A DNA stretch of 64,000 bases from the NCBI RefSeq assembly GCF_036507355.1, contig NZ_AP027877.1. The stretch is one strand, 5' to 3'. Positions within the stretch are counted from its first letter, which is position 1. Every line of letters begins with the position of its first letter. The position numbers are program-made. The stretch comes from Escherichia coli (lineage in GTDB: Bacteria; Pseudomonadota; Gammaproteobacteria; Enterobacterales; Enterobacteriaceae). Below, one piece after another: positions 51,301 to 57,300 of this stretch.

Positions 51301-54300
51301 TGCCAATTATTCAAAAAACTACACTATTAACAGAGGTGAAGTAAGTATGCTTCGTTCACAGCTTCGTATACGCGAAGTTTTAGTGGTAGCTGGGGCGGAT
51401 ATACCTGTTAGTGTTTTATTATCTGATGAATTTGGTAATCCTGTGAATGACGGTCTGGATTTGCTGACAGATGATGCAGTGTACTTACAAAATGTGGAAA
51501 AGAAACATTGGTCCAGTTGGACATTTGTAGGTGATGGCAGATATGAGCGTACCTATATGGCTTACAAAGAAGGAGAAAACTTAAACTCTTATCTACATAT
51601 TAATGGTTGGTATGTAGGCGGGCAACCGTCTTATACCATCCTTCCTTTTGTGGAAGTCGAGTCGCTTAGTGTCAATGGTGCAAAATTCAGGGCGGCAGAT
51701 GGTTTTCCCAAAACAGGGTTTGATGGTGCTAAATTTACACTGATATTAACCCACAATATGAAAAACACGGATTATAATTGGACCAGTGGCATACAGGGTA
51801 TTCAGGTCGATAGTAATGGTATGGTGACTTTAGAATTCATTATCAATAAAGAGGTTACTATTACAGGAACGCCGAAAAGCAATAAAGGGAATAAAGTTAC
51901 ATATAAATTCTCACTGCAGAAATGGTTTATACCTCAAGGGATAATTCAGGAATCATGGAGTGAGATGAATTCATATTGTATTGGTAATGGTTATATATTA
52001 CCGTCTAGTACGGATTTAGTTGGGAGTTCAACTAGCGGTGCTGTCCCGCGAAAAGTAGGTTCGTTATGGGGTGAATATGGTAATCTGACTTCGTATGACG
52101 GAATATTTCGCGCTGAACATTATTGGCTCGACAGCGGTATGATATTTTATCCAGGAGATGGTCATCTCTCGATTGCGCCACGTTCATCCCCACTGTGTAT
52201 GAAAACGTTCTGATATTATTTATGTTATTGCCCTGCATCAGCAGGGCAATTTATCTTCGCTCTTACGCAGAACTCCGCATCACACCAATAGTATTAAATT
52301 CATTTTTCACACTGAGCAAACGGGGGTCATGAAGCAACACATTTGACCATAAATCACTCTCTTTAATTAATTGTTGCCAGCGCTTTTCATATTCTTTTTT
52401 ACCATAAACAGTGTAAATTAACGGCAAAATAACACCATTGATTTTGTTGGTGTTAATATTTGCCAGTAACTTCATAATGTCATGTTTTATAGATGCGCCA
52501 TAGATCAGAAACTTCGTATAAAGCGAGTTAACGCAGGTGTAATCAAGACCATGTTCAGGTTCAAGTTTAAGCAATAAACTTTTGGCTTTGTCATTATGTC
52601 CTTTCAGTGCCATGAACATAGCCAGAATAGATGTAATAATTGGATTGTTACAGGTGTTTTGACTGTTAAGATTTAATGCAAAAGATATCGCGTTATCGAG
52701 TGGTGATGTATAATAAAGTATAATTAATTTAAGAATGCTTATGCCCATTTTATTGGGTTCAAGAGCAATGCTTTTTTCTATTAAATTAAATGCTCTTGCA
52801 AGGTCGCCGTTCAAAAAATATAGCAGCGACTGATAATAATAAACGTCTGGCGAATTAGGTTTGAGTAAATGTGCTTGTTTAAATAGCACATTAGACACTG
52901 AATGTTCATCTTTTAGCCCACTGATTAAACCCAGTAAACCCAATGCCTGAGAATTTGAAGGGTTAATTTCCAGAGCCTTTTCAATGGAGGTTACTGCCGT
53001 AGTTATTGCTTGTTTTTGTTCACTGATTCCAAGGAGTGCTAATGATATATGGCATTCCGCCAGGCAACAGTAGGGCAAGGTATTTTGCGGTTGCGTACTC
53101 ACACAATCTCTAAATATTACTAATGCTCGTTTCAAACTTTCTGGTGTATAACGGTACATTTCCATCCTGCCATTCATATACATAACAGCAGAATCCAGAG
53201 ATGGCATTTGTTGTGTATTAATGGATTTAAAATTAATGTTGGGTATTTTTTCAATAAGAATATTAATTACTTGTGATAATAGCACGGAAAGAGGATTGTC
53301 GGGGTTGAAATCAATACTTTGATGATCAATCAATTTATGCGTTCTGGCATGGATTAATTCAATAAATAAACGCCAGTTTTTACCATAGTGAACGACCTGA
53401 CCCATAATATAATATTCTGGGCCTGTTTTATTGATAAACTGATGGATAGTGGAGAAATCACTGGCTTCATTCGTTACCGAAGCGGGTAAAATATCTAAAC
53501 CACAAAAAGCATATTTTGAAAGGCCCTGGACCAGTTCGTAATGGAGTTTTAGAACATTGATCGAACCTTCAGTACGAAAGGGAAAAACGGCAAGAGTGGT
53601 GGTCGACTTTACCGGTTCATTATCGGTTACAATCACAATGGGGACAGTAAAACGGTATCCACGACCATAGACCGTTTCGATATACTTACACTGTTTATTC
53701 TCATGCAAAAGTTTACGCAATGCATAAATACACCGTGTTAAAGATTCATCACTAGCAACACTCGCGCTCCAGACCTTATCGATAATCTCTTCTTTGCTAA
53801 CAATTTCACCGTCAGCATTAAGTAATAGAATGATAACGCCAAGTTCTTTCGGGGGAATATGATATTCTTTGTTTTTGAATAATAATATTCCATTGTTTTT
53901 TAATACAAAGTCACCAAATATATATTGTTGTGTATTATTTTTTCCATGTTGCAGTTGCATAGAACGCTCCTTCCATTTTCTCTATTCATAGTATTAATTT
54001 GATCTGTCTAAAATAAAGTATTGGCAGAATTGCTCTATCAAAAAACGCTCATTTTGTGAGATTGTGATGAAGAAATGAATGAAAGCTGATGCTTAATAAT
54101 ATGAAACGCTGGTCCCATTTTACGGGACCAGATAGTGGACGATAATTGTGGGTGTTACTTAATCAAAAGCGTAAATAATCCTTCGCTGAATCAAACAACG
54201 CAGTAATGGTTGAAGATAATAATTTGATAATCGTATCGTAGGTAGAGTTGGCTGTACTGTATTTAGTCGTGATAACCTGTACGTCGGTTTTCATGTTTTC

Positions 54301-57300
54301 TGCCTGGCCGTTATAGCCCGCCAGCCATGCCTGGTATTCAGCCGTGCTTATTTCGTAGCCGGTGAATTCTTTAGATATATTTTTTTCCTTCCCTTTATCA
54401 TCCCTGTGTACCATTGAGTCTGAAGACTGACTCATACTGTCAATAATCTGAGGGTTGGGAATAATAACATACAGACCGCTACCTTGCGGTTCAACTTCGA
54501 CTATAGGAGAAGGTGTGCGGTGTTTTGGGTCGGGTGGAATAACCGGAAGTCCTAAAGCGGCGCACCATTTTTCTGCTTCTTCCAGTGGAACACCAATTTT
54601 GTCAGCAGGTGCCGGAGGGTATAAAACATAGTCTGGATTGTAATGATAATGAAAATCACCATTAGGATATTTATCGATATAATAAAAATGCATCAAGGCT
54701 TTTGGGAATGCATTGACATCAAAAACTATCGCATCGCCTTTTTTATTAGAGTGAGTCCATTTTCCCATATTGCTTTGGATATGTTCACTGAAGTCCTGCC
54801 AGTATGCGCTCATTATCTCAACGCTATTTGCATAGATTTCGAGGTAGTCACTACCGAGCACACTCATCAAATCAGCAATATCACTGCATATATATTTATC
54901 ACTTTTAAATTCGCTTGAACTACTGGCAGTTAAAGTACTGCTGGTTGCTGAACTTCTCATTTCAGGCGCAGAACTATCTAAAGAAGCGATAGCGTGAGTT
55001 AAGGTTCCTTTGGTCGTTGCCATTGCAATTGACCCGGTTGTGTTGTGAGCAACGTTAGCCAGGGTTTTTCTCACAGAGTTATGCAGGGTCAATATTTTAG
55101 CGGGATCCTTTAACTTTCCGTCAATAGTATTAACATTTTCTGTAAGCTGCAGAACGTTTTTTATCAGCAAATAACTTTCGTTTAAGAGCGCGGATCCTTT
55201 CTCTGACAGGTTCTCAGTTGGAAAATTTCTGAGCATGTTTTTAACGAAGTTAAGTTGTATGTCATGTTGGCATTTCCAGTCTTCATTTCGCGAGCTACGT
55301 TCACTGACTAAAGTTGATAGTTTCTCAACATCTTTCTTGAGCATAGCGCCAATATTATTATCCTTACTGGCGCTGTTATGCAAATTACCCTCGCTTTTGC
55401 TGTTTCCCAATTGATGAGGCTCTTCACTTTGCGAGGATGCCTCTTTAAGAGGAATGTTTGCATTCTGCTGACGTAGAATATCTATATTTAAATTATTATC
55501 TTTATTAATCATGTGTCATTCCTCCTTAAATATAAGGAACTATTATTGCAATGATTTATGAGCGAATGCCTTGAACGATAGCACTATCAGTATCAATAAT
55601 GGTTTGTATTATTTGCTGTAATAAATTGAGTGCCTGATCTCTTCCTTGAACATCACGATTAATTTGATCCAGATAGCTACTCATAACTGAATGCATAACA
55701 TTTTTAGCTTGCTCAGCCAAGTCTTTTTCTGCACGAGTATGTTCCGATGCCACTGTTCCGCCGTATTGAGATAGATTTGCAATAGACTGAAATAGATTAT
55801 TGGTATGAGAAATAGAACTGGTAATACCATATCTTAGATTGTGACTATTAATTTTTTCTTTGTCTTTAATTTTATTAGTGATACTTTCTTTTTGTAACTT
55901 ACTTGATTGCTCTTGTTTGTCATTATCCTCAATATTCTCGTTATTTGATAATGCTTTTTGTTGATTTTCTATTTCGGCAAGTCTGGCTTTCGCATTTGCC
56001 ATATCTTCTTTTGATCTTATCCGAGTTTGGTCCTCTGGTTTTTCTGCATTTTGTTCCTGGTTTTCTGCGATATCATCTATCTTTCCCGCGGGCTTCGCAA
56101 GTTCTGCACCTGCCATAAATACAGCTCCCGTAGCATTAATAGCTGAGCCTGCTAATGCACCTGTTAAATTTGCCCAAGAAGCATTTTTTGTTTCGTCACT
56201 CTGAAGCTGGACAAGCTGTTCAAAAACGATGCTCATGCTAGCATCCGCCATGGCAGAGGCATTGTACATTGATGTAAAGACTCTTAGAAAGGCCTCCATA
56301 ATGTTCTGTTGTCTCATCGTCAAATTATCTAACATATCGAGAATATTAAATGTTATGGTTTTCTCTATTGACTCGGTAGACTGACAGGATGATTTTGTTG
56401 CTACAGCAGAATTTTGATTTATATTATGTAGTGTATTCTTAGCATAATTAAGACCATCTAGTACCTTACATTGTAATTCAGGTGAGAGAGCACGGACAGA
56501 CTCTATCAGACTAATAAATTTAGTATTTGTGTCAACTTTAATATCATTTGACGAAAAACTTTGCAGTATTTTTTTAGCTTGTGATACTCTTGTTTCATAA
56601 CCAGGTTGTTCATCGAATGTTGTTTTGTCGAGATTCTTATTATGAGCTGTATTGTTTATATTGCTAATATTATTGGTCATTTTTGAATCCTCTTATACGA
56701 TAGAATGAGAAGCAAATTTCAAAGCTTCAGTTCGGTGTTGTAATACACGCACCATCTGAGCTACCTCTTGTTCGACGGTTTTATCTATCCTTTGCATCAC
56801 TGTAAGCATTTGTTCGCGCGTTTTTGATAGATTGCTTATATCTTGTTGTAGAATTTCGATATCTGCAGACTTACTGGCAGCGTATTGATTCATGCACGAT
56901 GTAATTATTGTACAAACGCCTGCGGCAACTTTTTCAAGAAGAATAGTTATTTTTGCAAATATCATTATAAATTGTGATGATGCTTTTATTTTGTCACCGA
57001 GGAAATTTAATGCTGACATGATTTTTTTTGAAACTGACTTGATCATAGATTCCACGGTGGATTTTATACTGTCAGTTATTTCTTTTGTGATTTCTTCAGC
57101 GGCAGTTTTTGAGAGTGCCTTTACAAGTTCACTTATTGCTACTGAACAAATTAATGTTGCACCAATCATTAATGTTACCATAACAATAGAAGCGGCTGCA
57201 GATGAGTAAATATCTTGTACTAAATCAATAGTCGTTTGTTGGACACCCAAGGCGTCCAGAAGAGCGCAGATTGCGAGTAGTGTGGGGTCATATTTTGAAA

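Follow-up and report, generated by a model that had tools for sequence, protein, structure and literature searches.

The needle-tip gene eipD of an Escherichia coli eip island probably encodes a 449-residue IpaD/SipD-type protein with a lengthened domain 1 and loop insertions

The minus-strand open reading frame at 54163–55512 of the 64-kb window (the whole stretch of E. coli DNA analysed) comprises 449 codons and a stop, begins with ATG and encodes 449 amino acids, exactly as a preliminary description had it. It is eipD, a previously described E. coli type III secretion system (T3SS) needle-tip gene, and there is nothing new in its identity. The open reading frames of the window correspond, gene for gene, to the annotated locus of E. 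coli PapRG-06-5, and the order eicA-eipB-eipC-eipD-eilA-iatC, adjoining nlpA, yicS and tRNA-Sec, agrees with that locus and with the published eip (selC-B) locus (PMC11068852, PMC7058095, PMC4210603). The features in and around eipD are:

43424..52213, plus strand: iatC (= eaeX/air), inverse-autotransporter adhesin of the island (open reading frame; annotation)
52263..53960, minus strand: eilA, HilA-family regulator of the eip genes (NCBIfam NF009037, 950.9 bits, cut-off 589; annotation)
54109..54131, minus strand: terminator-like hairpin (10 pairs, 6 G-C; 32 nt past the eipD stop; weak T tract)
54163..55512, minus strand: eipD coding sequence (open reading frame; PF06511; PDB SipD/IpaD matches; PGAP coding sequence)
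55521..55527, minus strand: Shine-Dalgarno sequence AAGGAGG (8 nt ahead of the eipD ATG, 55512)
55556–56680, minus strand: eipC (open reading frame; PapRG-06-5 annotation)
56693–58474, minus strand: eipB (open reading frame; SipB N-terminal domain and SseC family in Pfam and NCBIfam; PapRG-06-5 annotation)
58530–58712, minus strand: 60-aa open reading frame between eicA and eipB
58722–59219, minus strand: eicA (open reading frame; SicA/LcrH chaperone family in Pfam and NCBIfam; PapRG-06-5 annotation)

The translocator genes run eicA-eipB-eipC-eipD from 59219 to 54163 on the minus strand, with eipD last and followed by the hairpin (a consensus match only), which is the layout of a tip-protein operon. 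It is presumed that eicA, the 60-aa open reading frame, eipB and eipC (55556..59219, minus strand) share one operon with eipD. Beyond the hairpin lie eilA, described as the regulator of the eip genes (PMC4210603, PMC11068852), and iatC, which contains eleven tandem 291-bp repeats. The ETT2 cluster is absent from the 64-kb window.

Family searches bear out the earlier assignment to the SipD/IpaD-like tip proteins. EipD scores 118.3 bits against Pfam T3SS_TC (PF06511; gathering cut-off 25) over residues 167–447, and a sequence search matches it to the SipD and IpaD chains of the PDB with E values of 1e-24 to 1e-15. Its score against the NCBIfam equivalog TIGR02553, 134.8 bits, lies under the curated cut-off of 219.25, which makes it an outlying member of the IpaD/SipD family; it falls under the cut-offs of the NCBIfam SipD and SctA equivalogs. 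Matches to eipD are present in 730 of 5426 complete E. coli genomes, with a DNA identity of 95–98.7% between this eipD and their alleles, and in all six 449-type genomes inspected NCBI (PGAP) annotates a 449-aa coding sequence in the corresponding position. Of the complete-genome alleles examined, the closest differs at 17 of 1350 bases, and the exact EipD allele of this window was not found in the protein collection.

The AF2 model and the alignment with SipD divide the protein as follows:

55354..55512, minus strand: residues 1–53, N/S-rich, predicted disordered (AF2 pLDDT 24–35; N 21%, S 13%)
54976..55353, minus strand: residues 54–179, helical part of domain 1 (AF2 secondary structure)
54901..54975, minus strand: residues 180–204, Ser/Thr-rich linker, predicted disordered (pLDDT ~30; S 42%)
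54781..54900, minus strand: residues 205–244, first long helix of the central coiled coil (SipD alignment; AF2 helix)
54346..54780, minus strand: residues 245–389, distal mixed alpha/beta domain (SipD alignment gaps; column occupancy; AF2)
54643–54666, minus strand: distal-domain insertion 1, residues ~283–290 (gaps against SipD)
54514–54543, minus strand: distal-domain insertion 2, residues ~324–333 (gaps against SipD)
54370–54405, minus strand: distal-domain insertion 3, residues ~370–381 (gaps against SipD)
54166..54345, minus strand: residues 390–449, C-terminal coiled-coil helix, the most conserved part in the family (AF2 helix 390–448; alignment)

The helices of residues 205–244 and 390–448, with strands between them, are predicted with pLDDT values mostly of 80–93 and define the coiled coil and distal domain. 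Residues 205–244 have a column occupancy of 1.00 in the family alignment. The conserved C-terminal helix noticed in the preliminary description is recovered as a single predicted helix (residues 390–448); most invariant columns in the relatives' alignment fall there, and residues 390–449 are ~60% identical to SipD (hand count from the alignment). Domain 1 contains four predicted helices (residues 54–75, 77–96, 104–125 and 137–179), with pLDDT values of 57–79 up to approximately residue 160 and ~30 beyond. By analogy with the family, residues 1–30 are presumed to form the T3SS secretion signal, and residues 54–179 are presumed to be the self-chaperoning domain, a role for domain 1 that Lunelli et al. 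support. Foldseek superposes the EipD model on truncated SipD and IpaD structures with target-normalised TM-scores of 0.83–0.85 and an rmsd of ~3–5 Å; for full-length chains the rmsd is 12–17 Å, with domain 1, which is modelled with low to moderate confidence, left unsuperposed on SipD domain 1, and its self-chaperone fold is therefore assumed.

Full-length SipD has 343 residues (chain 7rye_F; the NCBIfam SipD profile has 343 positions), so that the excess in EipD is 106 residues, close to the ~100 first estimated. EipD S204-D205 align with SipD S130-D131, which places ~74 of these residues in the variable domain 1, N-terminal to the central coiled-coil helix; the remaining ~32 lie in the three distal-domain loop insertions. 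EipD is thus longer than SipD both N-terminally and internally, the two locations that had been proposed as alternatives. In 131 relatives that fall outside the EipD clade, column occupancy does not exceed 0.15 at most of the insertion positions, and all three insertions are common to the relatives of 432, 482 and 484 aa. In 135 representatives of the family, the N-terminal part has a median length of 158 aa (5th–95th percentile 102–225) against 204 in EipD, with SipD and IpaD at the short end of the range, and the C-terminal part a median of 210 aa (194–227) against 245 in EipD (residues 205–449). The claim that EipD is longer than its homologues holds against SipD, IpaD and BipD, but not against its nearest relatives (432, 482 and 484 aa). 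As judged from these alignments, tip proteins differ in length mainly through their variable domain 1.

Constraint is distributed unevenly along the protein. Residues 1–204 have a pN/pS of 0.33, with 43 nonsynonymous and 29 synonymous segregating sites, whereas the C-terminal 245 residues have 7 and 53, respectively, and a pN/pS of 0.03. By this pN/pS, the first 204 codons are under purifying selection. Compared with the rest of the protein, the count of 43 to 29 implies weak constraint on much of the added length, which may contribute little. Within domain 1, residues 1–30 have a pN/pS of 0.06, and two sub-windows, residues 31–60 (9:1, nonsynonymous:synonymous) and 136–204 (21:7), have values above 1. 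These counts fit neutrality, being near our own estimate of ~3:1 for the ratio of nonsynonymous to synonymous sites, and positive selection in the sub-windows was dropped as an explanation.

The same polymorphism bears on the possibility that domain 1 and the three insertions form a lineage-specific, fast-diversifying module that tunes sensing at the ETT2 tip or varies under host immune pressure. Of the 50 nonsynonymous polymorphisms, 43 fall in domain 1, the two sub-windows evolve at about the neutral rate, and we regard this possibility as unlikely. IpaD and SipD bind bile salts; were such a module present, the ligand of the EipD tip might differ from these, and the 105-bp deletion behind the 449-aa allele, described below, might have altered tip regulation.

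It is very doubtful that the extra residues constitute a separate domain, gained by fusion to a SipD-like tip protein and functioning in its own right. Such a domain could be sought in the ~126 residues predicted to be helical (54–179), which have no sequence-detectable SipD-like counterpart, and gross additions do occur in the family: P0033 (521 aa) and P0117 (544 aa) seem, by eye, to carry a second copy of the distal domain and C-terminal helix, and P0037 (456 aa) carries a large insertion. However, searches of residues 1–203 against Pfam and the PDB (E up to 10 in each) returned only noise, a Smith-Waterman comparison for internal repeats in residues 1–204 gave scores no better than shuffled sequence, and hhalign of the EipD clade with SipD-like proteins aligned only residues 197–449, leaving domain 1 without similarity. 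For these reasons, domain 1 is read as a longer version of the normally variable domain 1 of the family, and not as a new module; the added domain of the preliminary description stands in the loose sense of a longer domain 1 and fails in the sense of a new one. Moreover, the excess is scattered and not contiguous, domain 1 is generally helical in the family and ranges widely in length (102–225 aa), its sequence is almost unconserved even between SipD and IpaD (PMC3150277), and constraint on EipD is weakest in this region.

Comparison of alleles raises the question of decay, in which the N-terminal half would be drifting and the 449-aa form would be a deletion remnant, its length without functional meaning. 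A rare 484-aa allele contains 105 extra bases, with the junction within the linker (residues 180–204), and in this form copies of a 10-nt direct repeat, TGYGCCTGAA, border the 105 bp; one copy, TGCGCCTGAA, is present at 54961–54970 of this eipD. This arrangement suggests that the common 449-aa form is a 105-bp deletion derivative of a form resembling the 484-aa allele. The 484-aa protein was modelled with AF2 to see whether the 35 residues that the 449-aa form lacks make up a structured helix; a helix is predicted at residues 193–207, with a pLDDT of only ~30. The absence of the repeat-flanked segment, the near-neutral sub-windows, the disruption of some alleles by IS2 or a frameshift, and the wide degradation of ETT2 across E. 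coli (PMC7058095, PMC11068852) are each compatible with decay. It is nevertheless highly improbable: the very strong purifying selection on the C-terminal 245 residues, an open frame in 9 of the 11 alleles examined, which differ by up to 5% in DNA, and the conserved Shine-Dalgarno sequence and first 30 codons all tell against it, and intact ETT2 is reported to occur together with the eip locus (PMC7058095).

The annotated start is well defined. The ATG has an anti-SD duplex energy of −12.1 kcal/mol, the strongest in the gene, and AAGGAGG is identical in all seven alleles compared and in L008. Anti-SD pairing was scored for all in-frame ATG, GTG and TTG codons through codon 249, and no internal start had a comparable ribosome-binding site, all being at −8.3 kcal/mol or weaker; the candidates for a product of ~340 aa, Met93 (357 aa) and TTG115 (335 aa), scored +1.2 and −0.4. 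The result named in the preliminary description as refuting, a strong site and homologue alignment in favour of such an internal start, was therefore not obtained. The stop-free run of the first 204 codons has a chance probability of 7.7e-7 given the local base composition, and the other five frames contain 6–28 stops each across the same stretch. On this sequence evidence, the 449-aa product of the annotated ATG is a real protein whose start is not over-called; it would begin with the N-terminal peptide MINKDNNLNIDILR. The earlier suggestion of an over-called start, with the real protein made from an internal Met and being ~340 aa long like SipD and IpaD, could draw on the length difference itself, on one 286-aa database member of the 90% cluster, corresponding to a start at Met164, and on a weak SD-like GAGGG ahead of TTG44 (−8.3 kcal/mol), and it is scarcely credible in view of the pairing energies, of a homologous core that starts only at approximately residues 197–205, of a 340-aa product that would begin mid-helix in the predicted domain 1, and of the long start taken by the NCBI annotation in every intact 449-type allele checked. 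The site before TTG44 is not conserved, as residue 44 varies between alleles and the GAGGGT preceding it encodes Gly42, which is Ser in P0001. Within domain 1, constraint is strongest in the first 30 codons, as expected of a secretion signal.

The preferred reading, to which we assign a probability of about 0.88, is that eipD is the needle-tip gene of the eip island, with a real 449-aa product of the three-part IpaD/SipD build, extended by a longer domain 1 and by loop insertions. The eip (selC-B) island would supply the translocator set, comprising the chaperone EicA with EipB, EipC and EipD, for the SPI-1-like ETT2. EipD would consist of domain 1 (residues 1–204; the disordered signal, approximately four helices and the Ser/Thr-rich linker), the coiled coil (205–244 and 390–448) and the distal domain (245–389). 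By homology, domain 1 may shield the coiled coil in the cytoplasm, acting as a self-chaperone, and be displaced after secretion; the coiled coil and C-terminal helix could then dock on the ETT2 needle, with the distal domain serving as a platform for EipB. The analysis confirms the annotation of EipD at 449 aa, with little significance beyond its correctness. The map of EipD against SipD, with its long, weakly constrained domain 1, three insertions and rare, ancestral-looking 484-aa allele, could be of use in designing constructs or antibodies for work on ETT2.

The closest known system is that of EAEC 042, in which EipD is the same gene, also of 449 aa and with the same neighbours (iatC/eaeX, eilA, eipC, eipB and eicA), in an eip (selC-B) island that occupies the equivalent chromosomal position, close to selC and nlpA (Ren et al. 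2004; Sheikh et al. 2006; both as given in PMC11068852 and PMC7058095). SipD of Salmonella SPI-1 (343 aa; PDB 3NZZ, 2YM9, 7RYE) shares the coiled coil, the distal alpha/beta domain and the C-terminal helix, with ~30% identity over EipD residues 181–448; each gene closes a chaperone-B-C-D translocator operon, and both proteins have a helical domain 1 ahead of the coiled coil. They differ in that domain 1 comprises 204 residues in EipD and 131 in SipD, with no detectable sequence similarity, and in the three distal-domain loop insertions, which SipD lacks. Shigella IpaD (332 aa; PDB 2J0O) and Burkholderia BipD (310 aa; PDB 2IXR) belong to the same family, have the same core fold and are shorter than SipD; target-normalised Foldseek TM-scores to the EipD model are 0.80–0.85 for truncated IpaD chains and 0.53–0.57 for BipD, whose sequence match to EipD is confined to the C-terminal helix. 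The Chromobacterium violaceum tip protein (PDB 2P7N, a 407-aa chain) aligns from its own residue 133 to EipD 162–448. Long tip proteins are normal in the family, which includes members of 432–544 aa; the N-terminal parts of 2P7N and other long members have no sequence relationship with that of EipD, and in the longest, P0033 and P0117, the extra length seems, on visual inspection, to come from a second copy of core sequence.

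The 449-codon ORF opens with an ATG and occupies positions 54163–55512 on the minus strand of the window. Residues 167–447 of its product score 118.3 bits (cut-off 25) with the Pfam model PF06511, type III secretion tip complex components, and PDB searches returned Salmonella SipD chains (E about 2e-24), the 407-residue Chromobacterium homologue 2P7N (E 3e-22), Shigella IpaD (E about 1e-16) and Burkholderia BipD (E 1e-12, C-terminal helix only). The ORF call and these matches bear out the coordinates, family, length and conserved C-terminal helix given in the preliminary description. 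The surrounding genes are:

58722–59219, minus strand: SicA/LcrH-type chaperone (eicA), by family match
58530–58712, minus strand: 60-residue ORF between eicA and eipB, hypothetical protein WP_000700143.1 (NCBI)
56693–58474, minus strand: SipB-like translocator (eipB), by family match
55556–56680, minus strand: 374-residue protein at the position of sipC/ipaC (eipC), by place in the gene order
52263–53960, minus strand: HilA/EilA regulator (eilA), downstream of eipD (NCBIfam NF009037, 951 bits)
43424–52213, plus strand, opposite to eipD: 2,929-residue inverse-autotransporter adhesin (iatC/eaeX), downstream of eipD

Family searches gave no match for the 374-residue product, nor, in Pfam and NCBIfam, for the 60-residue ORF, of which we know of no counterpart at the sicA–sipB (Salmonella) or ipgC–ipaB (Shigella) junctions. 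The annotated order in PapRG-06-5 is iatC, eilA, ‘IpaD/SipD/SspD family needle tip protein’ (449 residues), hypothetical, SipB, hypothetical, SycD/LcrH chaperone, yicS, nlpA and, further on, tRNA-Sec. The published eip (selC-B) island, which is under EilA control and is linked to the secretion system ETT2, comprises eipB, eipC, eipD, eicA, eilA and eaeX (PMC11068852, PMC7058095, PMC4210603). Because the neighbouring genes and the annotated locus match this island, the ORF is EipD, a product already known and annotated at 449 residues in the genomes inspected. By megablast, eipD is present in 730 of 5,426 complete E. coli genomes at 90–98.4% identity.

The middle of iatC/eaeX (46868–50073) consists of eleven tandem 291-bp (97-residue) repeats with 83% matches, at 58–61% GC compared with 37–40% in the remaining island; the repeat count differs from strain to strain (PMC7058095). 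Elsewhere the window consists of E. coli backbone (gyrB, yid genes, ilvB, uhp genes, adeD), with identities of about 98–99%. Beside ilvB/ilvN lies an islet of 35–41% GC (28936–31971, plus strand), complete in 444 of the 5,426 genomes, with ORFs of 431 residues (28936–30231) and 490 residues (30499–31971) that are annotated as hypothetical proteins and had no match in Pfam, NCBIfam or PADLOC.

An internal methionine had been raised as a possible true start, which would bring the protein close to SipD in size. AAGGAGG lies upstream of the ATG at 55512, separated from it by 8 nt, and the pairing of this site with the 16S rRNA tail (−12.1 kcal/mol) is stronger than at any internal in-frame start through codon 249. 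The best of these, TTG44, reaches −8.3, and the SipD-sized alternatives Met93 (357 residues) and TTG115 (335 residues) give +1.2 and −0.4. The TTG44 site is unconserved, residue 44 being variable among alleles and the preceding GAGGGT encoding Gly42, which is Ser in protein P0001; the Shine–Dalgarno sequence of the annotated start is unchanged across seven compared alleles and the metagenome contig L008, and NCBI annotates the long start in all six 449-type genomes inspected. Given a base composition of 37% A and 24% T in this region, one codon in 15 should be a stop, and 204 open codons would arise by chance with a probability of 7.7e-7; each of the other five frames contains 6–28 stops. Among nine intact alleles differing by at most 5% in DNA, pN/pS is 0.33 for residues 1–204 and 0.06 for the first 30 residues, as expected of a secretion signal. 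The long start is therefore real on the combined evidence of the ribosome site, its conservation and annotation, the open frame and selection. The internal start is rejected: no in-frame start through codon 249 has a comparable ribosome site, and neither the ribosome-site inspection nor the homologue alignment overturned the long form.

In the HMMER alignment, EipD S204–D205 pair with SipD S130–D131 where the first coiled-coil helix begins; of the 106 residues by which EipD exceeds SipD, 74 therefore precede this point and 32 follow it. EipD was aligned by MAFFT with 135 family representatives 280 residues long or longer, and column occupancy was taken from the 131 that do not belong to the EipD clade. 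Occupancy is full throughout the second half of EipD apart from about 284–290, 324–333 (plus 340–342) and 370–381, where it is 0.15 or less at most positions. When profiles of the EipD clade and of SipD-like proteins were compared, residues 197–449 alone aligned, with the same three gaps. These insertions are common to a 484-residue E. coli allele, a 482-residue E. albertii protein and a 432-residue E. coli protein, and are absent from 370-residue Enterobacter proteins.

The AlphaFold2 model (10-sequence alignment, mean pLDDT 67) comprises a disordered segment (residues 1–52), four helices (54–75, 77–96, 104–125 and 137–179; pLDDT 57–79 to about residue 160 and about 30 beyond), a disordered, 42% serine stretch (180–204) and a SipD-like core (205–449, pLDDT mostly 80–93) made up of helix 205–244, a strand-and-helix distal domain and helix 390–448. 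Foldseek placed the core on truncated SipD/IpaD with target-normalised TM-scores of 0.83–0.85 and an rmsd of about 3–5 Å; on full-length chains the rmsd was 12–17 Å, so domain 1 (residues 1–204) is not superposed. Because residues 1–203 matched no Pfam family or PDB chain, and residues 1–204 contain no internal repeat, the N-terminal excess is a longer domain 1 (compare Lunelli et al.). Of the suggestion of an added domain, the extra N-terminal length stands; a recognisable domain does not.

Domain 1 is also where most variation among E. coli alleles falls. Segregating sites number 43 (nonsynonymous) and 29 (synonymous) in codons 1–204 (54901–55512), compared with 7 and 53 in codons 205–449 (54163–54900; Fisher p = 1e-8), and 40 of the 46 variable amino-acid positions lie within the first 200 residues. 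Since the nonsynonymous-to-synonymous ratios of residues 31–60 (9:1) and 136–204 (21:7) match the roughly 3:1 that we estimate from site proportions, they fit near-neutral linker evolution and do not indicate positive selection. The rare 484-residue allele (protein P0002) is longer by 105 bases, which lie between residues 180 and 181 (window junction 54970/54971) and are flanked by a 10-nt direct repeat, TGYGCCTGAA (L008 616–721; locus L010); it was found in L008 and in two of the 5,426 complete genomes, one of them frameshifted. Modelling of this form places a tentative helix within the extra segment, at a pLDDT of about 30. More distant homologues also have residues in these alignment columns, so that the common 449-residue form appears to derive from repeat-mediated deletion. 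In E. coli CFSAN018748 (locus L007, 633–3318), eipD is split by IS2, which illustrates the attrition that has been reported among genes associated with ETT2.

With family membership, core fold, operon position and start codon established, the family suggests how EipD would act. Residues 1 to about 30 would form the secretion signal and domain 1 would shield the coiled coil before secretion; the protein would then take its place on the tip of the ETT2 needle, whose apparatus lies outside the window, by way of its coiled coil and C-terminal helix, with the distal domain as a putative platform for the translocator EipB.

When 1.84 billion representatives were searched exhaustively with HMMER, 236 relatives emerged. 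Those retrieved with 250 residues or more, 136 in all, have a median length of 365, a 95th percentile of 436 and a maximum of 544, and six reach 449 residues or more; EipD is long yet inside the family range. Three distant tip-protein relatives, P0033 (521 residues), P0117 (544) and P0037 (456), have apparent additions by eye, either a degenerate second copy of the distal domain and C-terminal helix or a large insertion before that helix. Among 135 relatives of at least 280 residues, the part that starts with the coiled coil and runs to the C-terminus has a median of 210 residues (5th–95th percentile 194–227; SipD about 213), and in only four is it as long as the 245 residues of EipD, whose less ordinary feature is thus its enlarged distal domain and not its N-terminus. 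Before the coiled coil the median is 158 residues (5th–95th percentile 102–225), with 204 in EipD and about 130 in SipD; SipD and IpaD lie near the short end of this wide family range.
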